A stretch of 56,626 bases of DNA, the filler included, from Asterionella formosa (taxonomy: Eukaryota), in assembly GCA_002256025.1 (NCBI GenBank). It is 6 parts of 6 records of this genome, joined end to end, with 100 filler letters (N's around TTAATTAATTAA, not from the genome) between each part and the next. Parts side by side here need not be neighbours in the genome. Positions count along the whole stretch, not along the records: positions 9,474 to 18,845 come from NKIB01010741.1; 5 more parts are not named here. One strand, given 5' to 3'. Shown here in pieces: positions 513 through 43,658 of the stretch (positions are counted from its first letter, which is position 1; the number at the start of each line of letters is the position of its first letter). Position numbers and translations under genes: made by a program. Under the pieces are notes generated by a model that saw nothing but the letters and a program-made list of their open reading frames with translations, was not told the origin of the DNA and ran no database searches.

Positions 513-3032
513 ATGGTCTCAACCGGCGCCGGCACCAAGGTCGACGTGACTTTGAAGCTCTCTCAGCTTCAGAATCTTTGTAAACGTGACCCTGAGGGAT
601 ATCGTGAAGACTATGATGCACAAGTACGTCGCTTAGAATCAGAATGTGGCATCTTGGCACTCTCGCCTTCTTCGGAACCCAGCAAGAGACTAGAAGAACT
701 CATTCAGTTTGCTGCTGCTGTTTCATCGTCAAGTTACAAGGGGGTGGAAGCAGAGCGTATTGCATCTCTTTTGATCAGCTTGTTGTTGGGTTCATCCGAA
801 ACATCCTTGAACAGCTCGTCAAAGGGGCAAACAGTCAGCATGAGTATGCCAACTTCGGCTCTCCAACTTCACAAGGATGTTCGCAAGGCAAGCGTATCGG
901 CATTGATTCTCATGCGAAACAAGGGAGCTGTAGAGCCATTGCGACTACTGGAACTGTTTTTCAAAATTCTGTCGGTCGTCCCTGACAAGGCCCTTCGGGA
1001 ACTGCTGCATCGACACATTGTTAATGATATTCGAAACATTAACAAAAAGGGAAAACGGGACGAATTAGTTAATCGCAGCATCCAAGCATTTTTGCATAGA
1101 GTTATTTCCTTACCTCTGGACGGAGATGAAGCCACGGAAATCGCGGCCAAGCGAGCAACAGATATGGTCTGCGAACTGTACCGTCGAAGTGTCTGGACGG
1201 ATGACCGGGCTGTAGCGATTCTGGCATCGGCCGCTGTGTCTAAGAACACGACTGTCATGAGCAGAGCATTGCGATTCTTTCTTAATATTGAAGAAAAAAT
1301 GGCAGAAGACAAGGCCAGGGAAGAGGAGGAAATTTGGGCGGGATGTGAAACTGTAAACCTTCATCAGCACAATCGGAAGACAAAGGTAAGCGCAAAAATT
1401 TATGGTCTCATGTTTTGTGGTTTTGCTTCCTTTCCTATGCTAATCAAATATTTTTAGGGTCGACTTGCAAAGATTGAAAAGCAACTCAAGCTTAAGGCCA
1501 AGGCTCAAAGAGCGCGAGAAGGTGAAGAGAATTGGGAATGCATGACTAATGATAAGGGAGTTGAAGCGGGAAAAAAACTATATCCTGCTATCGAAATGTT
1601 ACGAGACCCTCAGGGGTTGGCGGAATCTTTATTTAAACGACTCAAGGCATCTAACTCGCAGAAGTATGAAGTCAAACTACTCTTGATGAACTTTGTCACC
1701 AGGTTGGTAGGAAATCACCAATTGCTACTCATGCCGCTCTACCCGTATTTACAACGTTATATGGGAGGCCACCAACGTGATGTTACAGGTGTCTTGGCCT
1801 ATGCTGTGCAGGCTTGTCATGAAAACGTCCCCCCTGACGAAATTTATGGGGTATTGAAGACCATTGCTCACAACTTCATTACCGAGCGATGTTCGGGCGA
1901 ACAAATGGCTGTTGGTATCAATGCCGCCAGAGCAATTTGCGCGCGAGTTCCCTCAGTGTTGTCTATTGAAGAGTCTCAGGAATCATCAGGAACCACTGTC
2001 ATGGACATTGAAGCCTTTGCTCGTGATTTGGCAGCATACGCCAGGCACCGTGATCGATCCGTTTCCATTGCCGGCAAGGCTTGGACCAACTTTATTCGTG
2101 AAGTTCACCCTTCGTTACTGCAGGGCAAGGACCGTGGCATGGCCGGCTCAGCCTTGCACCGAAATGGAGAAAAACCCTTGAGATACGGAGAAACGAAGGT
2201 GGCAACGGGAGTCGAGGGATCGGATTTGTTGATTGCGTATGAAGTTAATAAAGCAGCTGCAAAACGTAAGGCCGCCGAAATCGAGGAAGGCGACGAGGAG
2301 CGTGATGATGAAAGTGAGGGTGTTCACGAGGAACACATGAACGACGAGGAAGGTGACGACGATGGATGGGTTGACGCTGACGACGAGGAGGGAGACGATG
2401 ACGAAGGATGGATTGATGTCGACGAGGAGGACGATGAAGAAGGAGACCAAGCACCGCAATTAGTTGTTCACGAAGGTGCGAAGAAGGAAACCGGCGAGCC
2501 TGTTATGGATCTCACAAAAATGACCACGATCCAAAGAGATGCCCTCAAACAGAAAGTATCTTCCGATCGGATCTTCACTGCTGATGATTTCGTGAAAATG
2601 CGAAAGCTGGTTGAACGAGAAAAGAAAGCGAAGCGTGATCCTCGCGAAGCTGCTAGACGTAAGCGAGCGATTGCCCAGGGGCGAGAGTTTGAAGAACTTA
2701 GTGATGACAATAGTGTCGAGTCTGATGAGGAAGGCCGAATCAAAATCGTCGGCGCAGTCAATCCTGGGGACATTATGGCTGATTCCAAGCGAAAGAGGCA
2801 GTCCAAGGCGGAGAGATTGGAGAGCATTTTGGCCGGGCGATCGGCGTTCGAATCCAAACAGCGTGCTGGAGGAACTACAGATACGGAGAAGAAACGCACC
2901 AAGAATTTCGTCATGTCCAAGTTCTCTTTCGATAGCCGATCAAAACGAAACGGCAAAAGCGCTCGTCAGGAGAAGAAAACTCATTTCATCGAGGGTACTA
3001 GAGAGTCAAAGAAGCGCCGAAGAAAAGTTTAA
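513..3032 (+). CDS. SDA1: SDA1-like 60S ribosome biogenesis/export protein (exons 513-1385, 1458-3032)
   Basis: N-terminus LSQLQNLCKRDPEGYREDY; motifs ELYRRSVW, RDPQGLAE, HNFITERC..MAVGINA and a basic C-terminus fit SDA1. A 72-nt intron at 1386-1457 (GTAAG..TTTTAG) joins the two ORFs in frame. Confidence 0.93.
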
Positions 3033-9373: not shown

Positions 9374-9473
9374 NNNNNNNNNNNNNNNNNNNNNNNNNNN
9401 NNNNNNNNNNNNNNNNNTTAATTAATTAANNNNNNNNNNNNNNNNNNNNNNNNNNNNNNNNNNNNNNNNNNNN
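9374..9473. other. Artificial contig-joining spacer (N44-TTAATTAATTAA-N44)
   Basis: 100-nt spacer with stops in all six frames, identical at five places. Confidence 0.98.
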
Positions 9474-9474
9474 T

Positions 9475-10560
9475 GTCACTATCAAGAACACGACATCACA
9501 ACAGGTGGAAAATGCAAATTCCAAACTGAGACACGAAGGTATTGAGCTTTCAGCATTGCAAGAAGTGAATCAGGTTATACAATCTGGTTCTTTGAAAGGT
9601 AACCGTTTCGATATTGTGGTGCGAGACTTGCATCGAATCCATGTCGAAGCAAATGAAAGTGGTGAAGCCATGGAAAGAAGGGTTCCTTGTGATCGGGCTC
9701 ATCTAGAAGTTCGCGTTAAAGCACTTCGTCAAACTGGATTTATTAACTATTTTGGTGAGCAACGGCTTGGTAGTCCTGGAGACGCCAATGAAGTGGGTGT
9801 ACGCTCCTTTGATATAGGACGAGCCATGCTGCAGCATAATTTTGATCTTGCTGTAGATCTCCTTATGTCTGGTCGCTTGGTATGTCGTGGTCCAGAAGAA
9901 ATGGAGTCCCCTGCTATCCGAAAAGTTCGGCAAACATGGAAGGATTCTGGTAGAGATGCTTCACTTACTCTGGAATGCATGCCCAAAATGGATATATTGG
10001 TGCGAGAAAAGGTTGTATTGCAAGGGTTGAGGCGATACCACAACTCTCTGGACGCCTTGAAATGTTTACATTTCAATATTCGTATGTTTTGGATAAATGC
10101 CTACCAATCATATATTTGGAATACTATGGCATCTGAACGAATTTTACGGTTAGGAAGAAAAGTTGCAAAGGGGGATTTGATTCTGGATGAAAATGGTGAC
10201 GTCCGTCTAGTTAATGATTCAAACATAAGCACAACATCATTTGATGAAGTCGTTCTGCCGCTTCCAGGCCACTCTATTGAATATCCCCAGAACGAAATTG
10301 GCAAACTGTACGACGACCTACTCAAGAAGGAGAAAGTTAGCTTTAATAAGGACGCACCTCCGGAAGCAACAGCTAAAGGTGCCTACCGAAGATTAATTTG
10401 TCGACCGGCCCACGTTTCAGCTGACATGATTGATGATGACGAGGTGCATGTGACGTTGGTCAAACTTGGCTTTGATCTTCCCTCAGGGTCCTACGCAACA
10501 ATGCTGCTTCGTGAATTGATGGTGAAGACAGTTTATAGGCGCCAAAATGAGTTACACTAA
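9475..10560 (+). CDS. TruD/PUS7-family pseudouridine synthase, 5' end cut by contig edge
   Basis: Motifs LKGNRFDIVVR, GFINYFGEQR, AYQSYIWN, VVLPLPG and FDLPSGSYATMLLRE. The frame is open back to the gap. Confidence 0.92.
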   Translation, partial: VTIKNTTSQQVENANSKLRHEGIELSALQEVNQVIQSGSLKGNRFDIVVRDLHRIHVEANESGEAMERRVPCDRAHLEVRVKALRQTGFINYFGEQRLGSPGDANEVGVRSFDIGRAMLQHNFDLAVDLLMSGRLVCRGPEEMESPAIRKVRQTWKDSGRDASLTLECMPKMDILVREKVVLQGLRRYHNSLDALKCLHFNIRMFWINAYQSYIWNTMASERILRLGRKVAKGDLILDENGDVRLVNDSNISTTSFDEVVLPLPGHSIEYPQNEIGKLYDDLLKKEKVSFNKDAPPEATAKGAYRRLICRPAHVSADMIDDDEVHVTLVKLGFDLPSGSYATMLLRELMVKTVYRRQNELH

Positions 10561-11634
10561 TTTTGCTTGCTCTGAAAGCGCTGCGAGTGCTCGTCCCATG
10601 TCTTCGAAAGTCTCGGAAACACTTCGCAGCTTAATTCCAAGTTCTTCTTTCAGCCTTTCTGTGGCTAGCACTTCACGAGTTCCAATCTTGATAGCTCCGC
10701 CATCAAATTTCTTGTCGTAAGAAATTTTGTCTGGAGTTGCAGAAAACTTCTTCAGCCCTTCTGCTGTGACCTCGGACGGAAGTCGAGCTTCGGCCGATAC
10801 AATAAAACGTTGGCCAACGGCAGAGGTACGTGTTCCAGCCGCAACATGAGCTTTGGCAACATCCCTTACGTCAACACAAAGTCGTGATTGCACCATGGAC
10901 TCGCCCTTTATCCACTGACCCACTAACTGAATGGAATAGGAACTAGATTGAAATGTTCCGTCGACCGAAGGGCCAAAAATAAAGCTCGGACATAGTGAAG
11001 TCATCTTGACTCCCAACTGTTTACTAAGTTCCCATGCCCTTCTCTCGGACTCAGCTTTCCCCCATTGATAACTAGCTCCCCAATCAGCCCCAAGGTTGGA
11101 GGCAGTGTTCCAGTCTTCACTAGTGTAGTACGCTCCGTTGGTCGGCGTTTGGCCAGTTCCTCGAACCGCTGCCATGGACGACGTGAGAACTAATCGACAA
11201 TTCGTGAAACTTCCTAACGCGGATACAACATCTTCTGTTCCTCTGACATTTTCCAGGGCTGTCTGCTCGTGGTTGCTTGTAGGTCCGAAAACGGAAGCAA
11301 CATGATAGAGGCAGGCCGTATCACAATCTCCAATGGACTCCAAGGCATTTTTCAGCGTAGCGCCGCCATCCAGCATGTCATAGGGCATCACACGAACGCA
11401 GTTGGACCGTGAGTTCCAGTAGGTTTGTTCGTGTTCCACTCGTTTCAAGCGTACCAAGCAGATGACATCGTCATTTCCTTCCTGAAGGAGCGAATGTACA
11501 ATCTCCCGTCCAAGGTAGCCATTTGCGCCCGTCACAAGGGATGTTCGTTTCCCAGGTGCACAGAGACTCGATACCGTGCAAACAGAAAGTGAGGGTATCA
11601 GTATCAGCAGGGCGAGAAACATTGTTGCCGCCAT
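10552..11634 (-). CDS. Extended SDR / NAD-dependent epimerase-dehydratase (DFR/CCR-like) with a signal peptide
   Basis: Rossmann motif LVTGANGYLG, TSSMAAV, catalytic YQWGK (YxxxK) and VDVRDVAKAH. Hydrophobic N-terminus. Confidence 0.92.
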   Translation of the reverse strand: MAATMFLALLILIPSLSVCTVSSLCAPGKRTSLVTGANGYLGREIVHSLLQEGNDDVICLVRLKRVEHEQTYWNSRSNCVRVMPYDMLDGGATLKNALESIGDCDTACLYHVASVFGPTSNHEQTALENVRGTEDVVSALGSFTNCRLVLTSSMAAVRGTGQTPTNGAYYTSEDWNTASNLGADWGASYQWGKAESERRAWELSKQLGVKMTSLCPSFIFGPSVDGTFQSSSYSIQLVGQWIKGESMVQSRLCVDVRDVAKAHVAAGTRTSAVGQRFIVSAEARLPSEVTAEGLKKFSATPDKISYDKKFDGGAIKIGTREVLATERLKEELGIKLRSVSETFEDMGRALAALSEQAKLV

Positions 11635-12163
11635 CGTATTACCCGTACCGGTAGTTACTGTAAAACTCCAGATTCTTGCTCATCCGTGATCAGCCTCCGT
11701 CATCATCCAGCCAATGATTAATTAGTACTAAAACATCCAAAAGAGCGAGAACAAGCTCCAATTGTTTATAATTATATATATATATATACACCGGTATTAT
11801 TTAGCCTGCTTGAGGTGAAAAAGACATTGGGCTTTGTTCCCCTTCTAGTAAAAACCGTCTTCTACCGCAACGCCCCCAGCTCGTACTATATCATTTATTA
11901 CCAGCATTCTATTGTACTGGAATATGGAACCTTGAAGCATCACGAAAATACATACGGTAGATTATTTTTGTCGTATCGCTCAGCCATGTCACAAAAATAC
12001 CGGCATTTTTTAGTGATGAGCATGTTGCCGACGACAAAGAGGATCACAAAATCGAATTTTGATACACCTTAGTAGCAGCAGTGTGCTATTCTCAACAGTT
12101 CTTCTTATTTTGATATCATATAATATATATATTAATATTCTTGTATTTTATTTATATTCAGAG

Positions 12164-12886
12164 ATGAGATCCTTGACAGCCTCGTTTCTCCTCGCTGGTC
12201 TTACTTCTGCCACCGAACAACTCAATTCATCGACGTATAAGCAGTTCACTACTTCGGGTGAGTTCTATAGAACGTGCGAAAGAGATTGAAGATGGAATGT
12301 GAAGATAAAGAAACACGATCGGCCCAGCTGCACAAGAAACGACACTAATCTTTGCTCGGACCAAAAAACCACAATACTGACTAAAATGTTTCTACGAGTT
12401 TTTCTGATAGGCAAGAATGGTATGATCAAATTCTTTCAACCTTGGTGCAGTCAATGCACTCGAATGAAGCCTGATTGGGACAGATTATCGGAGGAAGCGC
12501 ATCCGTCAGTATTCATTGCCGATGTCAATTGCGAATATGAGCACGATTTTTGCCAAAACGAAGGAATCGAAGGGTTCCCAACCATCAGGGTGTACAAAGA
12601 CGGATCAGTTGACACATATGACGGCGGCAGAGGCTTCGACGCGCTTAGATCATTTGTTGATACAAATTTGGCGCAAAAATGCGACATCGCCAATGTGGTG
12701 GGATCCTGTAGCCCAAAAGCTACCAAGTATGTATCAAAGTGGAAAAGCAAGGATTTTGATTCCATTAAGAACGAACTCATTCGTCTGGAGATCATGGTTG
12801 ACAAAACAATGACTGCAGATTTGAAGGTGTGGCTCCGCGAACGAATATTTATCTTGAAGCAACTCGTCGCCAAGGATGAGCTATAG
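12164..12886 (+). CDS. ER thioredoxin/PDI-like protein with an ERp29-like helical C-domain and KDEL (exons 12164-12257, 12411-12886)
   Basis: Signal peptide MRSLTASFLLAGLTSA. The intron at 12258-12410 (GTGAG..ATAG) gives SGKNGMIKFFQPWCSQC. Also GFPTI and a terminal KDEL. Confidence 0.88.
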
Positions 12887-12936
12887 AAAAACGTTCACCA
12901 GAAAGGCGACGGTTTCTCGCGTGAAAATATATTCAA

Positions 12937-15900
12937 CTAGGATAGTTCAAAACCAGCGCACGATTCGATAGCATAGACCAGACGCTGTTTCAGGATCTTC
13001 TCGCTGCTGTAGGTTGGTAGTTTCAATGTATTGAAACACGTAGAAGCTGTGGGCAATCTGTCACCATCTCGCAGAATACCAACTCTTTGAATTGTAAATG
13101 GAGGGTTCATACTTGCAAAACCCAAGGGGGGAGGTCTCTCGCAGGAAGTGACAAATCGGAGGAGCCTTGATTGCTGCTCACTGGTCAGGCTCGCAACCAC
13201 GCTCCAAAAACGCGATACAGTGGGATCCAGACCGGAAAACCCACCGATGTAGCGAGTGTTTGCTTTCATGTCAGCAACATCAATCCCACCGTCCACAGGT
13301 CCGCTGATCAAAATCTGAAGCTCTGGCTCGTTAAAGATACGTAACCAACTTCGATCGATGACTTCCCACAGACCTCGAGTGAATGCTTCTGACTGCTCCT
13401 TCACCCGATCACATACGTGATACTTTGCCACCAGCCCAATGTACCGTTGCTTATTCAAGTTTGTCACACAAACATCAGACCCATTTGGGATCAAATTGAC
13501 TTCACGGTTTCCCCCAAAGTCGTCATTTGCGACAGTAAATGTGAGGCATAAATCTTCGGCGTCGCCGTCGTATGTTTTCAAAAACATGAGATTGTTATAC
13601 AGCTGGGCATCCATAGTGCCTAGATCAGAAAACATGTGGAGGAAGTTGTATTCACCTCGAAGAAATGAAAGGAAGAAATGAGCAAACTGTGGATGGATTG
13701 TGATCCCTTCGTAGAGAGCTTTACCAAGAATTCGCCCAAGGAATTCGAAAAGAGTTCGGTGTTGGGTACCATGAGCTGCCCCAGATGACGGATTAGGATA
13801 CATACAGTTGGTTCCTCCTTCTGTGACTCGAAACAAGGCATAATTGGGATTGAAAGCGATCGCACTCAAATCGGTCCAAAATTCTTTGAACAAACCACCC
13901 ACGTCAACTCCTGATTCGGCTGCACCTGCTTCGTTCATGTAATACACCACGATTCGTTGTCTCATATTCTTTCCCAGGTTATTCATGGTAGCAATCCCAT
14001 CTTCAAGTACCCTCCCACGCATGATTCGAACAGGAATTCCTGGTTTGAGGCCTGGCTCATTCGAAAATGGATTGTTGTTGTGCTGGCCCTGCATATCGAT
14101 TTTATTCGTTGCGACGATACGCTCGAACAGTTTTAGGCGTCGTTTGAATGAAACAAGAAAGGGGCAAACTCTTAATACTGGTAAACTCAAGAGAGACTCG
14201 TACTCTTGAAAAGTCTTTGCTCGCTTAATTTCGTTGTCAAGCAGATCATCGACGATCCATAGCTTCGGAACACACAACGGCCGTCGACTAGAACGATCGT
14301 ATAGATCACGCATAGTTCTGGCAGATGCCGATATGAGCGACAATCCGAAGTAGTCTGATTCTTGGCCAATTACTCTTGTATCATCGACGCAGCATGCCCG
14401 GTACAACAACCTCTTGAGCAACTGGATACATCTTCGAACTTGGTGGATTGGGAGTGGTTTGTCCATATCAAGGATTTCAACGTCATCGGTGATGATGAGA
14501 GTATGGGAGAAGCAATAGTTGAAGAACAAAAGCTGCACTGCACCGTTGCTCTGCTTGCTACCAGCACCCCACTTCGGGCGAATATTTAGCGACCGAATGG
14601 GTGTAGACCCCTTGCTGGAGTCAACTACAGCATACAATTCAGTGATAATGTCAGTATTTGATTGGGTAAGAGCCCACGTGGTTTGAACAATTGAAGTGGA
14701 AAAGCAGATCGAATTCAATATGGACATCGTACAGGCATCAGATCTCAACGTCGCTCGAGCCTGCTTGTCAAACGATTCTTTATACGGTGAGCCCACTTCA
14801 GAATTTTTCCTGCAAACAACGTCGTCAAGCCCTCCACCTCCCCACCGAGCAAGGATAGTTCCATAAGACCGGCAAAGGGCAAATAAGAAATCAGGATCAT
14901 AAGGTTTTGTTGCGGCAGCCACTTTCGTTCGTTGTTCTGAGCTGGATATCATAGCATTTACCACCGTACGATCATGCGCCCCTTCTCCATTAGCAAGTTT
15001 TCGAGAAACCGAAGACGTGTTGACAAGCATCCCCGGTCCATTCTTTCTGGTCGCCTTCGGCATCGCGAGCTTGCCATCATCCCCTGACAACATTTTCGAC
15101 ACTCCAGTTGTCAGATTTTTGGCCCATTTGCTTGACTTCCAAAATCCCTTCGATCTATCTACTCTCGCTTCCTTCGCTGCGAGACTAGCTGCAGTATCTG
15201 TACTCGTCAAGTCTCGTTCTTGTTTCAAATCTTTATCGTTTTTTGTTTTCAATATGCGTTCCGTTCCTAGAGTATCACCATTTATAGCTGAGAGAAAAAG
15301 GCATCGCACGTATGAATCAACGAGAAATAATTTGCATTGCTCTAACACTATAGGAGATAAAACCACGGGTGTGTGATGGCCGCCATCGGAAATCCACTCT
15401 ACAGCAGACTCTCGAGCAGTAGAAAAGGTCCCAAGAGGTAAGGCATCGACAAGAGTTGCCATGAAGTTAAAAAACAGAGAACCATCCTGATAGTCTATTT
15501 TCACTGAATCATTTCCGTTGATACTGGGACATAATCTTCCTACTTGAACCAGATTCGCCATTAAGCATTGCGTATTAGTTGCGGGACAAGAAGTCAAAGG
15601 AACATCAACCGTAGGCAAAACAGATGCGATTTCGCCAGCTGTCAAAGTGGCACTGTGTTGCTCTGTAAAGGCACGTATAATTTCAAGAAAGACAGGTCTT
15701 GGAGTACCATCAATGAGTTTGATGAAAGAGGCTGACGAGATTTTCCAAGAAAGCAATGGGATAGTCATCACTTCAGCAAGGAAACGAGTCAGTAAGAGGC
15801 GGCGGTTCAGGCCAGAGGAAACAATATCCAATACCATCAGAAACAAGATGTCATTTTGATGTCTGTTTGATGCGAAAAAAGCCTCGCGTCTTTTCGTTGC

Positions 15901-16869
15901 TTCCGCTGGAATTGGATCTCCCTTGCAAAACATGAGGTGGTGGCGCGCAATTGCTATAAAATCCAGGGACGAGCCAACTACACAGTGCGGTATAGTCAAT
16001 TTTGTAACAGGTTTTGTTGTGGGAGCATCTGAGCTGATTGAAAAAAGGATTTGTTGGGATTCTTTTATAACGACTTGACGCGCACCAGACGATTCACAAG
16101 TGACTGTTCTGATGAATGTGTCGATTGTTCTTAGTACGTGATCCTCAACATTCTTTGTAACTGCGACCACCAAAGTAAGCCTCAGCAGCTCCTTTAGTCG
16201 TCTATGTCCCGCCCATGCTAGGATCGGGTCCAAATTAGGATCTGACCCCATTATTCCGGGTAGAATAGCGTATTGAATGATCTGTTGTAGTAGATTCTGA
16301 TCATCAGGTGACCGAAGAACTATCATGGAAGGTTTACCGTTGCGATAGGGTAAACTCCTTGACAGGAACAATAGCTGTCGTACCAAAACGCTCACAGTCG
16401 CAGGTGGAACAATATATTCTGCAGAAGTCTTTTGCTTCAGTAATACTCGGAGGGTCGCTACGTCCTTGAGTCGTAGCGAGAGTAGATGAGCATGATTCTT
16501 CAACAGCGCTAAATTGGACCGGTAGGATCGATAGAAGGACTGAATAATCAAAGAGGATTTAGCTCTCAATTGGTGGTCGTGGCGGACTTGTCTCTGGTGC
16601 AATGCAGCAGCGACAGATGAACTCTTCCCAGCGACAACGGCTGAATCTGGATTTAATGCTTCTGGCTTAGAAGTTGTAATCACTTGAGTGGCCGGTGATA
16701 TCTGTTGGGATGCGCTGGGTGCTGATACTAATGAAATATCAGAGGCATCTTTCGCTGCGGCAGCCTCCTTCGCCTCCTTTTCCTGTTGGTGTTTAAGATT
16801 GCGACGCCTCGCTCTAGCTTCTTCCTGTCGCTTCTTTGCTGCGTTGCCTTTGACTTCTTCGGCAAACAT
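12937..16869 (-). CDS. HECT E3 ubiquitin ligase, UBE3B/UBE3C (UPL6/7)-like
   Basis: 1310-aa ORF with an N-terminal IQ-like motif (IIQSFYRSY). HECT motifs GVDVGGLFKEF, LGRILGKALYEG, LRFVTSC and catalytic LPTASTCFNTLKLP; ends GFELS. Confidence 0.96.
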   Translation of the reverse strand: MFAEEVKGNAAKKRQEEARARRRNLKHQQEKEAKEAAAAKDASDISLVSAPSASQQISPATQVITTSKPEALNPDSAVVAGKSSSVAAALHQRQVRHDHQLRAKSSLIIQSFYRSYRSNLALLKNHAHLLSLRLKDVATLRVLLKQKTSAEYIVPPATVSVLVRQLLFLSRSLPYRNGKPSMIVLRSPDDQNLLQQIIQYAILPGIMGSDPNLDPILAWAGHRRLKELLRLTLVVAVTKNVEDHVLRTIDTFIRTVTCESSGARQVVIKESQQILFSISSDAPTTKPVTKLTIPHCVVGSSLDFIAIARHHLMFCKGDPIPAEATKRREAFFASNRHQNDILFLMVLDIVSSGLNRRLLLTRFLAEVMTIPLLSWKISSASFIKLIDGTPRPVFLEIIRAFTEQHSATLTAGEIASVLPTVDVPLTSCPATNTQCLMANLVQVGRLCPSINGNDSVKIDYQDGSLFFNFMATLVDALPLGTFSTARESAVEWISDGGHHTPVVLSPIVLEQCKLFLVDSYVRCLFLSAINGDTLGTERILKTKNDKDLKQERDLTSTDTAASLAAKEARVDRSKGFWKSSKWAKNLTTGVSKMLSGDDGKLAMPKATRKNGPGMLVNTSSVSRKLANGEGAHDRTVVNAMISSSEQRTKVAAATKPYDPDFLFALCRSYGTILARWGGGGLDDVVCRKNSEVGSPYKESFDKQARATLRSDACTMSILNSICFSTSIVQTTWALTQSNTDIITELYAVVDSSKGSTPIRSLNIRPKWGAGSKQSNGAVQLLFFNYCFSHTLIITDDVEILDMDKPLPIHQVRRCIQLLKRLLYRACCVDDTRVIGQESDYFGLSLISASARTMRDLYDRSSRRPLCVPKLWIVDDLLDNEIKRAKTFQEYESLLSLPVLRVCPFLVSFKRRLKLFERIVATNKIDMQGQHNNNPFSNEPGLKPGIPVRIMRGRVLEDGIATMNNLGKNMRQRIVVYYMNEAGAAESGVDVGGLFKEFWTDLSAIAFNPNYALFRVTEGGTNCMYPNPSSGAAHGTQHRTLFEFLGRILGKALYEGITIHPQFAHFFLSFLRGEYNFLHMFSDLGTMDAQLYNNLMFLKTYDGDAEDLCLTFTVANDDFGGNREVNLIPNGSDVCVTNLNKQRYIGLVAKYHVCDRVKEQSEAFTRGLWEVIDRSWLRIFNEPELQILISGPVDGGIDVADMKANTRYIGGFSGLDPTVSRFWSVVASLTSEQQSRLLRFVTSCERPPPLGFASMNPPFTIQRVGILRDGDRLPTASTCFNTLKLPTYSSEKILKQRLVYAIESCAGFELS

Positions 16870-17166
16870 GACTAAATCTAAGACGGGATTCCTCGCTTCT
16901 CATAAATTACAAATGTCTGATCTGACGATACAATTATTCGCCGTTCTTGACGAGCCGCTTAGAGAGAGAAATGAGTGGAGGATGACAGTCACTTGTTGAC
17001 GAGGATCAAGCCGCTGCGTACTACACGGATGAAATATACATGAAATCAGTCAGTATACTGGTCATTTGTGTACTAGTAGCAAATAGGAGCAATGCCGGTG
17101 TATTACCGACAGTAGCGCAAAATCTCTTCTGCCCTTTCAATGACGGCAGCACCATAAGATACTGCT

Positions 17167-17390
17167 GAAGGCAATACACGCCCGAGGTGGTCTCTTGCCT
17201 GCGAGTATACATGTGTGCGAGGCTGGGTGGCGCGAGTAGGTTGACCGTACGAGTGGCGCCCCCGGCGCTGCGAGAAGGTCACCCTACGAGTGCCATCCCA
17301 GTCGAGTACGCATGTATACGAGAAGGCAAGTAGCCGCCGAGAAGGGTATTGTTGAGGCAATTCCCGCTCTAGCTATCGTAGCGTCATTCG
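17167..17390 (+). repeat. Dispersed repeat copy A, containing a rod-like hairpin (17171-17353) and a possible PPT/LTR junction
   Basis: Aligns by eye with 31504-31690. The arms are self-complementary with ten CGAG motifs in register. Confidence 0.85.
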
Positions 17391-18845
17391 CTTACCTACT
17401 GCCCACAAATTTAGCATAAATGTCAATTTTAGCATACTATTGCCCATCATATAAAATATATTTTGGATATTTCCTATCTTCACCTCGAAAATTGCCAAAG
17501 GTCCGATATTGCCCATCATTAAAATATATTTTGTATATTTCATATGTTCGCATTTTGGCAAGACAACAGACACCAACTGCCCCTCGGTTTTCCAGCCCTG
17601 GGATTGCCGAAATCGGGAAGGGGTCTACTTAAGGAAACTATTTTATATACTATACAGATTCTAATAATTTATATGTAGAATTCACCTCGTTTTTGTTCGT
17701 CTCCTGAAAAGTGGACTCCGGCAATTCACCTTTCACCATGCCAATCGTCGTCCATCATGACCGGTTTGAAGCGAAATCAGTTCCGCGATGACGCCAATAG
17801 CGATTCTTTGCCTAACGGATGCGGTTGATTGTTGGATTGCTTGTCTTCTCGAGGTATTCATGTAGTCGCATCGTCCATATTTCGTCGGACGCACGATGAT
17901 ATCGATACATCTGATGTTGGTGGCAAGTTTTTGCTCCGGTCATGAACCGGTATGTAATGATGCTTAACGGATATTCTACCGGTACCGGCAGTCAACTAGT
18001 CTACATACGTACGTGGTACTAAAAACAACCATGCATGGTTTAAACTATGCTTTAACGCTTACTTTGAACACGTCATAATATTATCTCTGTAGACTCGGCA
18101 TTATTTTTACGAGACCTGAAATGTTGAATTATATCGTTCACATATTCATTGATTTTACGTACCGCATGCCCGATTTCGTCCTCACAAATATAGATCTCAC
18201 TCTATCTTGCCTGCCTTTGCTCTATTCGGGCTTGCAATAGGCAACGTTCGTCTTTCTTTTATACCATCGTCTGCTGCTTGTTATGCTAGTTGAAGCGGAT
18301 CAGTGAGTACAACAGTGAAATACTGAATGTGGATTGTAGATTGTATTTATCGGGCCGACTTTCCGATTTGATTGCTTCCGTGGTTTGATTTGATCGCTTC
18401 CATCGTTGTTTGTCGTTATGCACTGTCGTTTTGTTTCGATTGCACCTATCTACATAAGAACCAATGCATTTATCAATGACTACTCATTGAAGATGTGGTA
18501 TTGTGCCGTTGTTGATTTGTATAGTCATTGACAATGATGTCAATATTGCCGCCAAGCAATGCTTTTCTTGTACTAACGCGCTTTGCTACATTTCTACTGC
18601 GAGTTCGTATCAGAAGCTACATGAATACTCAGCTAGAGAGAGTCAATAGTGCTGGAGCAGCGTGGCAATCACGCTTGCTCAGAATGAAATGATCAGGGTT
18701 GCTTGTTTGGTGGGCGGAGAGGAATGACTGTGGCGGAAATACTGCTACTGGTGTCAGGCTACTACAGCGATGCGCATGGTTGCAGAAACCAGACCATTTA
18801 CGCTACATAACGATGTAGGTCAAGATTGGGTTCAGCTTTTCCCTT

Positions 18846-18945
18846 NNNNNNNNNNNNNNNNNNNNNNNNNNNNNNNNNNNNNNNNNNNNTTAATTAATTA
18901 ANNNNNNNNNNNNNNNNNNNNNNNNNNNNNNNNNNNNNNNNNNNN
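18846..18945. other. Artificial contig-joining spacer
   Basis: N44-TTAATTAATTAA-N44. Confidence 0.98.
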
Positions 18946-20016
18946 CTTTCTACGACTAATCAGAGTTGATTTTTCAACCAAAAAGGGAGTACAAAATCAA
19001 CCGTCAATGCAACCGGGTTGATTTTTTCTTTGTTGTACAATACTGTATTTTCTCGTGATCAAGTACGGAAAAATACCGTCAAGGTATTTTACCATCCGCA
19101 GTAGAACGATACTTGAGGCCTACAGAAAAATACAACCTGGGTTGATTTTTACAAGTAATACCAGGGTACCGGAGCCCTACAGAAAATTACTACTTTGGTA
19201 GAATTTCGTCAATAATGGTACCATGTCCCGAGTAGGACAATACCAGGGGTCAACAGAAAAATACAACTTGGGTTGAATTTTACCAATAACAGGTAGGTAC
19301 CTCCAAGCAAGTTGCATGATGGATGTTCGAAATGCTAGAAAAGCTGCCCATTAAAAGGTACCAGGTACATGTCAAATATACTGAAACCATCTTTTGTGTA
19401 GACCAACAATGGTACAAAATTGAACGCAATTTGCTTTCTACACATTTCTGCGGTGAAAATCATCCACATTTTTCCACCAACAGCCAAAAAAATGAAACAC
19501 GGTACCGGTAGAAGCAATCAAAAATCGCTCCTGACAGGAGAACCGAACGTTCGGAAAAATGTGGACAAAATCCCCGACAGATTTATACCCACCGACCGGT
19601 ACCTACCACCGGTGCTGAAACTAGTTACCAACCATCGGTTCTGAAACTAGATATGTTCCAAATTTGTTTTTCTGTACAGTACTTCCAAGAAGAAGCAAAA
19701 AAATGCCCCAGCTGCCTGTCCAATCATTGCCCGTCACGATGTCGTCACGGGGTCTCCCCAGGACGTTTGAGTTTCTCGAGGCAGGCAGAGCGATCTTGTC
19801 AACCAACACCAGGCGGCATGACAACAATCCTCACTACCGGTACGTAAATAAAACATACTATGTATGGTACTCTGGTACAAAGTACATGTACGATGCACGG
19901 GTATTTGAATACATCACCATCATACCGAACCGGTACATGTGTAGCGATCGTCCAAAGGCAGCAGATCCTTTCTTGCTGCCGCGTACAATCAGGGGACCTG
20001 CCATGCAGCAATCACC

Positions 20017-26903: not shown

Positions 26904-27284
26904 GATCGCATTGTCTTTTTTCTTCTTTCGATATTGTGTGTCCAATCAGGAATGAGAACGCACTATATATTATACCGGGAGATGCGGCAAGAAGGTCTGC
27001 CTTTGGCCGGCGAAAAATTGGCTGGATTCGGCCTTGCCATGTACCGGTGGCTATTTACATACCGGTATACTGGTATATCATATCATATGTATTAATTATA
27101 GACAGACCCTACATCTGAGCGTACTGGTAGGTATCGGTCGTCGTCCTTGGATGTGTGGGTGCTATCGCTCGTTTTCCGATAGGAGGCGGCCTTTCGAAGT
27201 AAGGCTACAGCTATTATTCCCTACTCAGCTTCGGTACCGATAATCCTGTCCAAAACCTCTTGAGGAAAATGGCTATAGGGTAGA

Positions 27285-27515
27285 TAGGGTACCAGATACC
27301 TGGTGGTAGACTACTGGTACCAGGTACCGTACCGGTGCTCATACAATACCAGGTACTGGTACCAGGTAGACTGCCAGGGTACCGGGGTACAACGGCGACT
27401 CGGCGACAGTAGCCTACCAGGTACCGGTATGTAGTATACCGGTAGGTCCATACGAGGATTATATAGCAAGGAGTATCCTGTAACGATCTACTGGAACCTG
27501 GTACCAGGTACCAGC
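27285..27515. repeat. Low-complexity cluster of GGTACC/ACCGGT/CCTGGTACCAGG motifs
   Basis: Dense run of ggtacc, accagg and accggt words. Confidence 0.7.
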
Positions 27516-28298: not shown

Positions 28299-28398
28299 NN
28301 NNNNNNNNNNNNNNNNNNNNNNNNNNNNNNNNNNNNNNNNNNTTAATTAATTAANNNNNNNNNNNNNNNNNNNNNNNNNNNNNNNNNNNNNNNNNNNN
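28299..28398. other. Artificial contig-joining spacer
   Basis: N44-TTAATTAATTAA-N44. Confidence 0.98.
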
Positions 28399-31269: not shown

Positions 31270-31503
31270 GAGTATTTGATGTAAAAAATAGCATAGTTGA
31301 TTCTTGCTTTTTCACATCATGACATACAGTATTGCTGAAATATAAGATTGATCATTTGAAGCTGTGGTAATCCAAGACAACCAGGTACATAAACACAGTG
31401 TGTCTGTACAGTGGTCATGTGTAGGTAGACAATGGTCGAAGATTAGACCTAGATCTATAAGTACGACCTACCGGTACACTGCTGAAAGGTTGTTACATTG
31501 TTT

Positions 31504-31823
31504 AAGGCAGCACACAACCGAGGTGGTATTATGCCTGTGAGTACACATGTGTTCGAGGCTGGGTGGGTGCAAGTACGTTGACCATACAAGTGCCCCCCCC
31601 CCCTTTCAAGCAAGAAGGCAAGGCAAGTAGCCGCGAAGAAGGGTATTGTTGAGGCAATTCCCACTCCAGCTAACGTCTTACCATTCAGGTACTTCTAAGT
31701 AATCTATAGGCTCTAAGTAATTTCTTAAGTAAATTTTACTTAGGGGCAATATGGGGCACATCGAACTTTTCGGCATTAAAATTGCAGATTTTAGCATGAC
31801 AGCCAGAATAACGGTAATTAACA
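31504..31823 (+). repeat. Dispersed repeat copy B: decayed hairpin, GAAGAAGGGTAT, then a putative short LTR 31647-31823 (TGTT..AACA)
   Basis: The 5' part is homologous to 17167-17390 and the 3' part to 42162-42324. Confidence 0.8.
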
Positions 31824-33252
31824 TCATCACATGAGAAATAGAAAATCTTCTTTTGGGTTAGAAATGAAGTAAAAAATGAGTTTCAGTGGAGATGTATGCA
31901 TTGTTGTTGTAGTTGTACTTACACAGCAGCAGGCAACATTTACTTTGTTCCATCACACAATCGAAGAGAGAAGTAATACAGAAAAGAACGAAAAAGCTGA
32001 ACCCAAGCAATTGAGATCTGCATCGTTGTGTAGTGTAGATAATCTGGTTGCTGCCACCATGCACACATCTGTAGCTAGCCTGACACAAGTAGCAGGAGTC
32101 GTGCTTCCGCCCACAGTTATTCCTCCCACCAGACACAAACAACCCTGATCATTCCATGATTCCATTCCATTCTATTCTGAGCAAACACGATCGCCAGGCT
32201 GCTCCACTTTTGACCTCTAGCTGAATATTGAGACATAGATTGTGATACAAACTCAATACATTGTCAAGGCCGACAAATCCATTGACAGGACATTTAGGGT
32301 TAGCAAATGGAACCCAGATTCAAGAATTGGTTAATTTATCAGGAATAGATTTTGGGTACTCTACAAAGTCTTCAATTGCATCTGCAGGTACTATTCAAGT
32401 GAAGCTGATACCAGGCTTAAGAGCGACAATAAGGGACTCGCATCACTCATTGTCTTAGTAGCAACAATGCGAATTCTGGCTAGGGATGATGTACCTTTCG
32501 ATTCACTTGAGGAACTGGAATCAGCAGGAGAGAAAAACAATACCAACATGATCTGAAGGAGACATTCCCACCCAGGTAAGTTTGCAGACTTGGCCAACGT
32601 GATTGCATCCATTTGCTTGATTCTTCACTTTAATGATGTCTGCCAATGTCATTGTATCAATGCAGCTCTCTTCCTCTCATTAACAAGATCCACAATTGTT
32701 GATTGCTTTCATTCCACTGCCTGCCTCTTCACATTCTTCCTTGGAGGATCACTACTGGGTTCGAATTCCTTGGGAATTGAAAAATTTAGTACATTTCCAT
32801 AATGGTAGTCTAATAGAAGGCTATGATATTCTTGATTACATGATATGATGTGTAATAATATCATGATACCTGCAACATATCGGTACCTATTCTTATGTTC
32901 TGAACGTACGTTCATCCATCCGTGATATGTCCCGAATGAGTCCCTGCCACCAAAATAACTTTCATCCTCCTCGTTCGGTCATCAGCCATCGGCAGCAAAA
33001 TGTACACCGCCAGTAACGGTATGCTGATTTCGAGTCATCGAACTGCCCATTCCCAACATCATCGTCGTTATTATCCTTTCTCCTGTTATTACATACCGCC
33101 TCATCTCCATAATACATATGTATGTAAATCAGTATACTCATAAAGTGATTATAATCAAGCAAAGGCGAAAAGTAACAACTGCATTTTAACTAAACAGGAA
33201 TTGCCATCACCAACCCACCCTACGAACAATAACAAACCAAGGAGAATCAAAA

Positions 33253-36200
33253 ATGGCGAAACGAAGTACAAAAGCTAAACGCTCCTTGCAGGCCTTGCCG
33301 AAGGGTTTGCCAACAAAGAAGCGAGGGCATAGTACCGGTGGTGGTAGTACGGATATCAATCCATTTGACACGAACTCTCGGACGAAGAAACCGAAGCACG
33401 ACGTGCATAATCGTTTCAAAACCAAGTCACCAACCACCTCCAAATTGGCGCAATCCTTGTCTCGTCGACAAGAACAAGTTCAGCAACATTATCAAGATAA
33501 ACGTAAAGTCAATTCATTTATGGATTTACGAATGGGTGAATACGATGCCACAATGACGAAAGACCAACAACTTATGAATCGATTGGTGAAGGAACGTGCG
33601 CAGCGTTCTAAAAAGCATTCTAAATATTCACTTGAAGAGGAACAACCATTGACTCATGGAGGCAGAACCATTACGGAACAATCAATAAAGAATCATGTTA
33701 TTTTAAGTGACGATGAAGATGGTGGTGGTGGGAACTTGGAGGCCATGGATACAGAACTTCATTTTGGTGGTGGCAATCTTACCAGCAAAAGGAACAAGAG
33801 CAACAACCCATACGGTCCATCCGACACGAACATGGATTTAACGCAAGTTTATACTCAACGGAAAACGGAACTGGATGATTTTATTGCAAGACGAAAAATT
33901 GCAAAAGCAGAAAAGCTGCAATCAAAAGAACAACAAGCAGATGCATTTGGCACTATGGATGATTCTTTCAAGGAATTGGCACAATTGCTGCATTTTAGGG
34001 ATAAGAAACAAGAGCGTACGGAACGAGAATCTTTGAAAGCGCGGGGGCTGCTACCTCAGGAAGACCAAGAAATGGCTGATTGGGACAAGGAAATGAAGGA
34101 ATTCTTATTTCACAAAAAAGTCAAGGCCACGGATCGAACCAAAACACCCGAAGAAATGGCCAAGGAAGAAGCTGACCGCTTGCATAAATTGGAAACAAGA
34201 CGTATGGCTAGAATGAATGGAGACTTTGATGACGACGAGCTTTCGGATATATCTGGAGACGAAGGAAAAAACAAGAAGAAATATATTAAGAAACCATCAA
34301 AGAACGCAATGGCAACCGCTGAAAAATTAGACGATTCAGAGGACGAACAAGAAAAAGATCAAACCAAGGTTCGGTTCACTTCCGAAGGACTTGTTCAAAT
34401 TGATAAGGACGGCAATGTTGTTGGAAAAGTTGGAGAGGAAGAAGGATCAGATGAGTCGGAACAGGAGATTGATGAAGACGAGGAAGATGACGACGACGAC
34501 GACAACGCTGACAGTGATGGAGAGGACTTGCCAAAAGAAAAGGAGCTTGAGGGATACGACTCTTCTATTCTCTTGCCGATTGGAACCAGAGTTAATGGAA
34601 ACTATCGTGTCAAGGAGCAATTTGGCGAAGAACCCAAGTGGTACGCTGGCAAGATTACAAAAGTGAACAAGAACAAGGATAAAAGCTTCACTTACAATAT
34701 CGAATATGATGATGGGGATTTTGAAAATGAGATGGACCCTGAGAATGTTCATCCTCTTGCGAAGACAGCCCAGGAAAGCGACGCTGAAAGCAACCAGCTT
34801 CATGACGACTTGACTCTGAAAGAGAAGCGACAAAAAGCAAAACTCAAGGCTAGGTAAGTTACATTTGCTTTTTTTCTATATCGCTCAGGTGTTTGACAAC
34901 CAAAATTACGCGCACTGTGAAACCCTTGACACTGGTGACCGGAGATTCTAGCCGAACGTCTTGTTCAGCTTTATCTCCCGCGGCTGGTTGTGTACTCCGA
35001 GATTAATGCCTATGCCTCATAGTACCCTCGAAACGATTTTTTCACTTTCCGGTGTCTCCTTGGTTACAACATTTTATTTTCACTAACACTCTACAACACA
35101 CTCAGACAAGAAATGCCATATGTCTTCGAGGTGCCCACAACACTGGAGGCTTTACACGATATGATTGGACGATATGCTGCCACTGGGAATGAAGCATCTC
35201 TTATCATTCATCGTATCCACGCATCCAACTCGGTTCGACTCAACAAGAGAAACGGAGAAAAAATGCAAAACTTTTATGATGTTGTATTGCGACGCTTTGT
35301 GGCAGTCGGCGATGCGATTTATTCGTCTGGAGATGGTGGACCGGAACTTGGTCGGTATGAACAGCTCAACGCCTTGACTAAGGTGCTATATGGTATGTCA
35401 CAAGATGCACCCGAGTCTGCTGGTGCCGTGTGGGGCCGCCGTTTGGGGGTGATTCAGAATGCTCATGCCAAGCGGCTACGGGATGCAGATTTTGTATCGC
35501 CAGAGGACGACAATGACGACGACTTCATCACGGCATGGCCATCCACTGGAGTGATCCTCCTGCTCAAGACTGTTGGTCACATCTTTCCTGTGACTGATCT
35601 TCGGCATCAGGTCGTGACTCCCACCATACTGTTGCTTGGTCAAATGTTGGCGCAAACTCCAGTTAGATCAGTGCATGATTTGGCAATGGGCGTTCTATGT
35701 TGCGGCCTCATGATTGAGTATACGAAAGGAGCCAAGCGTATTTCTCCCGAGGCCCTTGCGTTCCTCGCTAGTGTTTTGCGACTTTTTGCTCCGTTCGCAA
35801 ACAAGACTCCTGTTCCTACTATAGAGGCAGCTTGGCAAATTCCTGAATTGAAGTCTCTACGCAAAAGTCTAGAAGGTATGGACTTGGATGGAATTCCAAA
35901 ACTGTCCCTAGAACGAGATTCCATTCAAGAACCAATCACGGCAGCTGGTGTATTGGCGTCTGCCCTGGAACTGGTGGAAGTTTCGGCAGAAGCACTCAAT
36001 GAAGCGTTGGACAATGGCGAATCAGAAGCTTTTGCCGAAGTTTGTTCTGCACTCTTGGCTATAAAGGCCAAATCAACGAATATGCCTCTCCCGAATGCTC
36101 TTGCCAACAAGGTGGTTCAATGCGCAAGTGCTGTTTCAGAGAGTATTGCAGGCGCCCGACAACCTCTTCAACGCAGGGCAGCACCTGAAAAAGAAACCAT

Positions 36201-36570
36201 CAAGTCACTTGCTCCTCGCATGGAAGATCCATCAAAGTATACTTTCTCTAAGGACAAGGGCAAATCCGCGAAACAAGCTGAATTGGACCGAAATCGCCGA
36301 GAATATAAGCGTGAACACAAGGCTGTTTCTCGTGAGCTTCGATTGGACTCTGTCTTTGTGGAGAAGGAGCGTCGCAGAGAGAAGGACAGCAAAGACCAGA
36401 AGGCCAAGGACAAGCGAAACAAAAATTTTGCCTGGTTGGAAGGAGAACAGGCTGCTATGAATCAACAAGTCGCTCAAGGTGGTGGTTTGCTTTCTGGTGG
36501 AGGAATGGGAGCTGCACGAGCAAAGGCAAGGAGTGGAAAAATGGGTGTCAAAAAGGGTGGCAAACTCTAA
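33253..36570 (+). CDS. NOP14: Nucleolar protein NOP14 (40S biogenesis) with a Tudor-like insertion (exons 33253-34853, 35106-36570)
   Basis: Motifs NPFD, FMDLRMGE, LTHGG, ATDRTKTPEE, LETRRMARM, MPYVFEVP, FPVTDLRHQVVTP and KREHKAVSRELRLDS. The intron at 34854-35105 (GTAAGT..CTCAG) keeps the frame. Confidence 0.95.
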
Positions 36571-42161: not shown

Positions 42162-42335
42162 GCAATTCCCGCTCCAGCTATCGTCTTGCCATTCGGCTAC
42201 TTTTAAGTAATATATAGGATCTAAGTAATTTCTTAAGTAATTTTTATTTACGGGCAATATTGGGCAAATCCAATTTTTCGGCATTAAAATTGCCGATTTT
42301 AGCATGACAGCCAGAATAACGGTACCTGGTAACAT
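42162..42335 (+). repeat. Dispersed repeat copy C (putative LTR part only)
   Basis: Closely matches 31654-31816 (gcaattccc..taagtaatttcttaagtaa..tttttcggcattaaaattgc..ttttagcatgacagccagaataacggta). Confidence 0.85.
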
Positions 42336-43658
42336 ACATAGAAATGGTACAACACGCGTAAAACAGAAGAGAATGATTGTAACCTGCAACATAAATGAAA
42401 ATTGAACATGATGTTTGGAGCAACCAAAGTATGAAATGCGGGGCTGCTCCAGCACTGTCGACTCCCTCTAGCTGAGAATTCTTACATAGCTTGTGATACA
42501 AACTCGTAGTAGAAAGGTACCAAAGCGCATTAGTACAAGAAAAGCATTGCACATCATGTTCAATGACTATACAAATCAACAAATAAGATCAACCACAATA
42601 CATCTTCAAAGAGTAGTCATTGATACAAACATATGCCCTTGTGTAGAAAGTTACACTCGAATCAAACCGACAGTGCGGAACGACAAACAACAGTGGATGC
42701 AATCAAAATGGACCATGGAAGCAATCAAATCGGAAATTCAACAACTAGTATCTACGATCACATTCAAAGTTTCCCTGTTGTACTCACCGATCCGCTCTAA
42801 CAAGCGTAACATGCAGCAGACAATGGGCTCAAAAGAAGGTCTAAAGATCCTGTTGCAAACCCGAATTGAACAACGGCAGACTGGGTAGAGTGTTCTATTT
42901 TAGTTGTCAGGACAAAATTGGGCATACGTAAAATCAATTTAGTAAACCAACCCAGCTGGCTTGTTGTTCTGAATTATATTTAGCCTTAATATGCTTTAGC
43001 CGAAAGTATGGCGACCAATCTATTTGCTTATTGTGCCATTTGCTTCCATATGTGATGCTTAATGTAGGACGGGTTTTCTTGAAGTAGCAATTTTGCTTAT
43101 AGTGTGACATCACCATCTCAACCAACTGCCATCACATCCACCTAGTTTACCAATACTATTGGTGAACACAAGGCTGAAGGTGAAGTATTTTTGCTTTAAT
43201 ACTTAGCTAAAAAGTACATTGCCCACAACATTGTATGGCTGAATTCATTCTCAAGGTATCCAAGGTACCAGGTAGTTTGCATATGAGCATTTACAATTAT
43301 TTAGATGAGACAATGCGATTCTTTTCTATTTAGAAAACACAAGAGTGCACCAGTAGTCATGGTGAGTGGCTATTGTAGGCATTTGCATTGAGCACTAATG
43401 CCCATCAATATGGCAAAAGTTGATAAATTCTGCTTTTCACAGGGACTTGCGTCATTAGCACTACACTGATACTCAACCCACAACTAAAGAAGGAGTACTT
43501 GTCCTAGAAAAGGAGCAGAAGTAACCAAAAATCCAGCAATAAAGTAAGAACCCTTTGCTGTCAGAACCATAAAGTTCGTTTAGATGGATTATCTCATCCT
43601 CTTGAACCATTTGTTGTAGGTATTTGCATGATATGTGGACACTTTCATGGTGAGCAAC

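Follow-up and report, generated by a model that had tools for sequence, protein, structure and literature searches.

Introduction

An established unit of stable DNA hairpins is the CGAG block, in which two antiparallel CGAG tetranucleotides face each other to form a C:G pair, sheared G:A and A:G pairs and a G:C pair; PMC10085684 describes it, in pyrimidine-GA-purine context, for hairpins of the human AUTS2 promoter. Here we report on a rod-like hairpin containing the identical unit five times, found in a stretch of 56,626 nucleotides from the freshwater diatom Asterionella formosa (assembly GCA_002256025.1; the whole stretch is called the window below), and on the high-copy repeat whose end it forms. 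Whereas the AUTS2 blocks are consecutive in a CGAG repeat, the five diatom blocks are separated by unrelated helices of 11–15 bp within a rod of 200 nt. Thus the unit is a published one, while the arrangement (five blocks with unrelated helices between them, on one strand and at the terminus of a putative transposon) appears to be new. Full-text literature searches listed no paper describing this arrangement or such a diatom element.

Several described systems share some of these features. A Mutator-like element (MULE) of the diatom Phaeodactylum has terminal inverted repeats (TIRs) of ~200 bp and target site duplications (TSDs) of 9 bp, according to bioRxiv 10.1101/2023.01.02.522487, and long inverted ends are therefore plausible in this lineage. 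Like such long-TIR transposons, the repeat described here is high-copy, lacks an open reading frame (ORF), has a structured end of ~200–250 bp with repeated subterminal motifs and resides in a diatom; unlike them, as far as they are described there, its end is itself palindromic with strand-asymmetric mismatches, and it is known here from incomplete copies. Non-autonomous derivatives of such transposons, and fold-back elements, compare in the same way.

Imperfect subterminal hairpins, whose mismatches leave one strand well folded, are known from the TnpA sites of IS200/IS605 elements and from the 3′ end of Helitrons. The diatom hairpin is likewise imperfect, adjoins a terminus and folds well on one strand, but it is ~10 times longer, has identical blocks at periodic intervals, is found on the favoured strand at its 5′ end and is without the canonical terminal motifs. 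A retroviral counterpart is the constitutive transport element (CTE) of Mason-Pfizer monkey virus, a rod in the 3′ untranslated region (3′UTR) with two larger internal loops of two-fold symmetry. The two rods are alike in length (about 160–200 nt), in having loops that read alike on both arms and in their mobile-element context, and differ in that the diatom rod has five minimal 2x2 G.A blocks and that no retroviral genes or pair of long terminal repeats (LTRs) are seen. Finally, the kink-turn bound by L7Ae places tandem G.A pairs beside an asymmetric bulge of 3 nt. The diatom blocks share with it the tandem G.A flanked by C-G; we rejected the kink-turn as an identity because all five loops are symmetric 2x2 loops without a bulge and the hairpin gives no snoRNA or kink-turn match in Rfam.

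Results

The hairpin forms the end of a high-copy dispersed repeat

A dispersed, high-copy repeat, ORF-less in the 1.68 kb visible in the window, has the hairpin as its terminal palindrome. The features on which this rests are as follows.

17163..17170, + strand: terminal octamer TGCTGAAG, with which the repeat starts, placed by the depth step and the unlike flanks to its left.
17163..18845, + strand: body of the high-copy repeat up to the end of its piece of the window, placed by read depth in run X2 and containing no ORF of at least 90 aa.
17159..17363, + strand: terminal palindrome (rod hairpin) with its outer extension, in which ANTGC pairs with GCAAT across a UGAAG/UGAG loop.

Parts of 16870–18840 were present in 20 of 24 public runs (15 studies, mostly freshwater metagenomes; six are RNA libraries). 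Four of the runs (X2, a DNA run; X15; X17, a polyA library; X18) were compared over 16500–18840 on the basis of the best-supported rows, beyond which there were 112 rows with other letters, 119 joints, 623 loose ends and 6894 pieces. Depth in X2 was 186.2 in every bin from 16500 to 16973, as for a single copy, and between 129,004 and 426,054 in every bin from 17132 to 18790, with 74,703 in the last, 50-base bin (18791–18840). The change is sharp: at 17158–17163 depth rises from 186 to about 2 × 10^5. Records matching the region numbered 5525 in X2 (85–99+% alike) and 1175 in X15, and directly before 17163 unlike sequence was found in at least 47 contigs of X2, at least 25 of X15, at least two of X17 and at least one of X18. 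The unlike flanks and the depth step at 17163 together indicate that the hairpin is the first 200 bp of a very high-copy repeat.

A scan of metagenomes with the 20-mer that follows the hairpin gave 11 loci, seven of them true copies; the other four (L002, L006, L007 and L011) were chance matches. The metagenome contigs are ~1 kb long, and two copies (L005 and L010) are cut by contig ends. In all five loci with a left end (L001, L003, L004, L008 and L009) similarity starts exactly at 17163 and the flanks are unrelated, which, with two further copies in the window, is the behaviour of a dispersed mobile element. The earlier note on this DNA had the hairpin end at a purine tract followed by TGTTG, as in the 3′UTR of an LTR retroelement, which would put the boundary on the right of the hairpin. 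This placement is not supported: copies share the sequence on both sides of TGTTG and all five break to the left of the hairpin, at 17163. Upstream there is no pol, only single-copy DNA on the 5′ side of a HECT ligase gene.

Two further ends came from a protein search with a spurious 70-aa frame through the hairpin, which gave two matches among four candidates (P0122 and P0123), both accidental translations of the hairpin in database ORFs. P0123 switches to unrelated sequence at the same terminus. Within 17163–18845 no stop-to-stop ORF of at least 90 aa lies wholly inside the repeat, the longest being 83 aa, and an 89-aa frame at 17103..17372 extends out into the flank.

Other collections gave no true copies. 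Scans of IMG/VR with the 20-mer after the hairpin and with a 17-mer at the terminus gave 2 and 42 loci, respectively, with the hairpin in none of the 44, and a scan of GTDB genomes gave three loci, none of them true. In the 42 phage contigs (L014–L055) the terminal 17-mer lies at the 3′ end of what is apparently one conserved gene, before its stop and the next start; this is a coincidence and unrelated to the diatom element.

Two observations concern the immediate surroundings of the terminus. The ~85–110 nt to its left (17053–17162) are moderately repeated, with a depth of ~4,500 against 186 in X2 and 4–8 variant contigs, and an exact X2 contig breaks off at 17077; either a longer subfamily or an older repeat into which the element inserted may account for this segment. 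A contig joint 18622>17158 hints at an occasional tandem or rearranged arrangement.

Five CGAG modules face each other across one axis

CGAG occurs ten times in 183 nt (17171–17353), against 0.55 expected from base composition, and CTCG does not occur over the same span. On the left arm CGAG starts at 17183, 17202, 17218, 17233 and 17250, and on the right arm at 17271, 17287, 17303, 17319 and 17338, giving mirror sums of 34521 in four pairs and 34520 in one, exactly as the earlier note had listed them. The pairs are:

17183–17186 facing 17338–17341, + strand: CGAG module pair 1, from the sequence count and the minimum free energy (MFE) fold.
17202–17205 facing 17319–17322, + strand: CGAG module pair 2, kept in short-hairpin copies.
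17218–17221 facing 17303–17306, + strand: CGAG module pair 3, from the sequence count and the MFE fold.
17233–17236 facing 17287–17290, + strand: CGAG module pair 4, from the sequence count and the MFE fold.
17250–17253 facing 17271–17274, + strand: CGAG module pair 5, closing the apical stem with its CCC loop.

Fifty shuffled windows reached at most one mirrored pair on a single axis (42 shuffles) or two (eight shuffles), compared to five here, and among all 256 tetramers the five-pair mirror symmetry is equalled or exceeded by homopolymer runs only. In the MFE fold all five CGAG/CGAG pairs are symmetric 2x2 loops with C-G and G-C as closing pairs, so that by sequence and predicted fold each of them has the make-up of a CGAG block, two antiparallel CGAG closed by C:G and G:C; sheared geometry of the G.A pairs is predicted from this. 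The blocks lie ~16 bp apart, roughly 1.5 helical turns, with Watson-Crick/wobble helices of 11–15 bp between them.

The RNA fold of 17171–17353 has an energy of −112.8 kcal/mol on the + strand, compared to −64.3 ± 4.1 for shuffles (z −11.75; 0 of 200 as good), and of −79.7 kcal/mol on the − strand (z −5.66). Both strands were thus set against shuffles, and the + strand is favoured, as had been proposed. The same holds with DNA parameters for 17155–17368 (+ strand −51.4, z −5.4; − strand −40.6, z −2.9) and for the MFE of the whole palindrome, 17159–17363, folded as RNA (+ strand −120.0, with 74 pairs of which 11 are G.U; − strand −83.4, with 70 pairs of which three are G.U). In a scan of the window in 200-nt steps of both strands, this is the strongest fold, at −120 against a mean of −45.9 (standard deviation (sd) 9.5), with the next unrelated region at −83.

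The modules are not a tandem repeat, in agreement with the earlier note: Tandem Repeats Finder gave no rows in 17000–18845, which argues against a satellite. That note had also recognised no described family, and there is indeed none in Rfam on the hairpin. Across the window no Rfam 15 family matched at the gathering threshold; at E ≤ 10 over 16900–18845 none fell on the hairpin, and two weak snoRNA-like matches lie outside it, at 16918–17080. A tRNA scan found none.

Elsewhere in the window, the only other local enrichment of CGAG is at 2201–2480 (six in 200 nt), inside ORF 1542..3032 and without a strong fold. The second most stable fold is at 27160–27600, mainly on the + strand (−83 kcal/mol per 200 nt, ~4 sd off the mean), with several long helices and no Rfam match.

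Mismatches are favourable on one strand only

On the + strand the non-canonical positions of the palindrome are all favourable, being tandem G.A in pyrimidine-GA-purine context, G.U or G.T, whereas the same positions on the − strand are unfavourable (C.U, U.C, A.C). The other loops of the + strand in the MFE fold of 17159–17363 are purine-rich too (UGC/GAA, CGUAC/GAAG, CGCCC/GAAGG and UGAAG/UGAG). The + strand is the one with its 5′ end at the terminus of the repeat. This asymmetry fits single-stranded DNA and sense RNA alike; CGAG/CGAG tandem G.A pairs are stable in RNA as well. A strand-biased C-to-T change could not explain the G.A blocks. Simple inverted duplication would place CGAG opposite CTCG, so that CGAG facing CGAG needs two transversions per module, and the five are in register.

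Anatomy of the end and its copies

The octamer TGCTGAAG is preceded, at a distance of two bases, by an A in the window, in c2 (below) and in the five left-end loci, that is in 7 of 7 DNA copies; P0123 implies an exception. Because of this A, ANTGC pairs with the GCAAT after the hairpin, which extends the palindrome to 17159–17363 and makes it strictly terminal. The outer AUUGC/GCAAU pairing is visible in the fold of L004. Inward of the palindrome follows a subterminal region, and two further copies of the repeat are present elsewhere in the window:

17354..17725, + strand: subterminal region A1, rich in GGCAAT/ATTGCC.
31480..32254, + strand: copy c2, with the same terminal motif, a decayed hairpin, subterminal variant A2, and then the reverse complement of 18601–18840.
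42162..42938, + strand: copy c3, starting at GCAATTCCCGC, with variant A2 and then the reverse complement of 18148–18661.

GGCAAT/ATTGCC occurs at 17356, 17439, 17491, 17508, 17603 and 17720, plus 17170 inside the palindrome, making seven between 17170 and 17725 compared to a window mean of 0.72 per kb. The GGCAAT array resembles the repeated subterminal binding sites of DNA transposons. The region also holds a direct repeat of 44 nt (17438–17481 and 17507–17549; 91% identical, 69 nt apart), each unit with ATTGCCCATCAT.

Variant A2, shared by c2 and c3, differs from the A1 of the copy at 17163 (c1) beyond about 35 bp. In both c2 and c3 the block equivalent to 18148–18840 is inverted relative to c1. 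Decay in c2 has turned the CGAG of the hairpin into TGAG, CAAG or CGAA and removed the greater part of its right arm, and the fold is lost (z +1.26).

Two metagenome copies have the full rod, L001 with ten CGAG and L009 with nine. In the short rods the module pairs 1 and 2 are retained and the apical ~100 nt are deleted, in L004 and L008 between direct repeats CGAGTA at 17202 and 17303 and in L003 at a slightly different junction. Apex-deletion joints in the runs are listed at 17207>17312, 17225>17275, 17226>17267, 17246>17296 and 17255>17316. Palindromes in DNA are commonly unstable in this way.

Upstream of its hairpin, L001 carries an A2-type end in reverse complement, and the rod there extends to about 270 nt (−160.4 kcal/mol). 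The left flank in the window gave no significant alignment adjoining the hairpin that would make it a decayed inverted subterminal copy of this kind; it holds one AT-rich match of 18 nt, about 115 nt away. In P0122 the order on one strand of a single contig is flank, terminus and left arm of the hairpin (+), ~60–90 nt of A2 in reverse complement, and right arm of the hairpin in reverse complement. Here two inverted ends a few hundred bases apart may be present, as in a miniature TIR element, although this single, indirect case is a weak hint.

Contigs from RNA libraries

Contigs of three RNA libraries cover the hairpin, for example X18 record 18 (17176–17557, with four differences). Summed contig depth in the polyA library is 204 and 66.6 in the two bins entirely inside the hairpin (17211–17368), compared to 182 in the single-copy flank, and 2148.6 in the bin with the terminus (17132–17210); the DNA run, by comparison, has the repeat at about 1000 times the depth of the flank. 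Expression cannot be ranked by contig depth, and the RNA-library contigs give no strand, ends or level and may include DNA carry-over. One of the polyA contigs (record 9) starts in the HECT coding region and reaches 17190, ending 27 nt inside the element, and another (X17 record 15) starts inside the repeat near 18190 and extends past 18840. A further polyA contig of 444 nt (X17 record 12; depth 3138) consists of 17591–17790 on the − strand followed by 244 nt of unlike sequence; some copy of 17591–17790 may be part of an abundant transcript.

Conservation of the modules

In an alignment of eight sequences 96.5% of the cells are paired and two pairs change on both sides, a number reached by 151 of 500 shuffles. 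Some changes point to constraint. A clean compensatory swap is found once in L008, where U-A has become A-U in the CUUGCC/GGCAAG stem, beside a change from G.U to A-U. In c2 the same five positions of the left arm have decayed by CpG transitions, so that the ancestor of this 68%-identical subfamily already had the CGAG blocks. The earlier note had inferred a selected protein-binding scaffold or a means of evading Dicer. As to selection, with compensatory change not demonstrated and CGAG unconserved in decayed copies that claim is weakened, not settled, since the copies are young descendants of one master.

Discussion

A proposed non-autonomous transposon with a structured end

We prefer, with about even confidence, to read the repeat as a DNA transposon that is non-autonomous and has long inverted ends, its palindrome being a cis-acting structure read on one strand. 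Its TIRs would be about 240 bp long, comprising the terminal octamer, the hairpin and about 35–60 bp beginning with GCAATTCCCGC, and the element might be Mutator-like. The palindrome would act as an end structure, single-stranded or extruded, on the strand with its 5′ end at the terminus; the five C-G / sheared G.A / A.G / G-C blocks could serve an end-recognising protein as rigid, strand-specific landmarks, and the GGCAAT hexamers just inside could be ordinary subterminal binding sites. The arrangement in P0122 and the orientation of the internal block in c2 and c3 relative to c1 are weak hints of an inverted-end organisation. More specifically, the CGAG ladder could be a selected, strand-specific scaffold that is read single-stranded, as DNA or RNA, by a transposase or an RNA-binding protein, though we think this rather unlikely.

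A number of observations weigh against this reading. The copies at hand are incomplete and the right end lies beyond 18845, so that membership in the TIR class and affinity to MULEs, like a function of the blocks in transposition or binding, can only be suggested. In three of the five copies with a complete end (L003, L004 and L008) the rod is short, the apical 3+3 modules being gone, and c3 has neither the hairpin nor TGCTGAAG; the full five-module rod is therefore unnecessary for a copy to persist. The hairpin of L001 is not a free end; inverted subterminal arms stand on either side of it, and a longer inverted repeat is centred on it. CGAG has decayed at its CpG in c2, L008 and L009, and in L005 one right-arm module is the exact Watson-Crick complement of the left arm. 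The excess of G.U taken alone could be explained by strand-biased C-to-T mutation. Lastly, covariation among the eight sequences did not exceed controls (100–151 of 500 shuffles reach the observed values), as the copies are 88–97% identical and descend from one master.

Transposon ends normally carry sequence motifs, whereas here the outermost 200 bp looks designed as structure. Should the blocks be functional, they would reveal a way for a mobile element of eukaryotes to label a single strand of its terminus and would provide structural biology with a natural array in which CGAG blocks recur periodically; a selected scaffold would be an undescribed transposon-end architecture and the first such natural array with a biological role. 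If the blocks are not functional, there is still a lesson for genome scans, namely that a striking ‘novel ncRNA’ hairpin can be the terminus of a repeat. In either case a repeat family of this abundance will break diatom assemblies at the palindrome.

Alternative explanations

The repeat might instead be an LTR retroelement, which we consider possible but doubtful. An LTR of more than 1.6 kb would then start with the TG at 17163, and its U3 would have at the 5′ end the hairpin, which would lie in the 3′UTR of the genomic RNA just after the polypurine tract (PPT) as a packaging, export or stability element. The repeat does begin with TG, and the favoured strand runs 5′ to 3′ from the terminus as sense RNA would. 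In two runs the unlike flanks that precede 17163 have a purine-rich column consensus ending in ...AAGAAT (agreement 0.34 and 0.38), which could reflect a sub-population of PPT flanks; however, GAAT-TGC also fits a mere extension of the palindrome, as the reverse complement of GCAATTC. Likewise, a polyA contig starts near 18190 and the hairpin is found in RNA-library contigs (X15 and X18), but these are compatible with DNA carry-over and polyA depth over the hairpin (66.6–204) is no higher than in the flank (182). Neither an LTR 3′ end nor a primer binding site, gag, pol or second direct copy is seen in the 1.68 kb, and direct LTRs leave unexplained both the inverted internal block beside the same end in c2 and c3 and the two ends of P0122 in inverted orientation. 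The earlier note had suggested, as one of two possibilities, an LTR element with the hairpin in its 3′UTR, ending at a purine tract and TGTTG; the present alternative comes close to that idea, with the boundary moved. A mobile element is supported, but not that order of parts with the purine tract as PPT and TGTTG as the LTR start.

Somewhat less probable is a palindrome without function, which arose when the end was processed, by fold-back synthesis or by recombination, and was carried along by a successful master copy. The many different apex-deletion joints are instability of the palindrome type, and the short forms in three of five copies, the end of c3 without a hairpin, the central position of the hairpin in the inverted repeat of L001 and the lack of demonstrable covariation would all be accommodated. 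What such a by-product does not readily give is CGAG opposite CGAG, at two transversions per module and with all five in register, nor that on this same strand every remaining mismatch, too, is a stable one, either purine-rich or a wobble. In addition, the transitions in c2 imply ancestral CGAG at the same left-arm positions in a subfamily of only 68% identity.

We regard a single-strand HUH or rolling-circle element, Helitron-like or IS200/IS605-like, in which the subterminal hairpin would be a strand-specific recognition or termination signal, as distinctly improbable. The strand-specific fold lies only a few bases from the terminus, neither a TSD nor a TIR has so far been observed, and c2 and c3 resemble one-sided truncations that keep the same end. 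Helitrons start with 5′ TC, have a short GC-rich hairpin ~10 nt before a conserved 3′ tetranucleotide and insert between A and T. We rejected a match to these end features: read as a 3′ end, which is on the − strand, the terminus has the sequence ...CAGCA with N and T beyond it (6 of 6 DNA copies), preceded by a hairpin of about 200 nt, roughly ten times the usual length, on the weaker-folding strand. To our knowledge, Helitron-type and other HUH elements have no hairpin at the 5′ end, where the favoured-strand hairpin lies here, and no Rep or helicase was found.

A stand-alone structured non-coding RNA (ncRNA) or small-RNA precursor gene with its own promoter, in line with the new structured ncRNA that the earlier note gave as an alternative, would agree with the + strand fold (z −11.75, many G.U) and with the contigs of three RNA libraries over the hairpin, but is hardly credible for what is the outermost ~200 bp of a repeat in thousands of contigs, always joined to the same subterminal sequence, with no Rfam family, with resident copies that lose modules, apex or the whole hairpin, and with polyA-library contig depth over the hairpin not above the single-copy flank.

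Host locus and other features of the window

The window consists of six pieces of ~9.4 kb separated by N44-TTAATTAATTAA-N44 spacers (9374–9473, 18846–18945, 28299–28398, 37746–37845 and 47189–47288); adjoining pieces need not be neighbours in the genome, and the hairpin sits in the piece 9474–18845. In this compact diatom genome it lies ~300 nt upstream of, and outside, a gene for a HECT E3 ligase (ORF 12937..16869, − strand; Pfam HECT, E 3.8e-92), whose best named relatives, searched with the C-terminal 461 residues, are in the raphid pennate diatoms Fistulifera, Nitzschia and Mayamaea (~74–76% identity). Pfam found no transposase or reverse transcriptase domain in 16 neighbouring ORFs, which are host-type genes or without a match. 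A Nop14 homologue is split over ORFs 33253..34857 (profile positions 6–394 and a Tudor domain) and 35113..36570 (positions 431–861), probably owing to an intron or frame break. Where the piece following that of the hairpin starts, 19095–19301 contains two units of 76 nt that are 76% identical and 131 nt apart, with a sub-repeat of 40 nt present three times.

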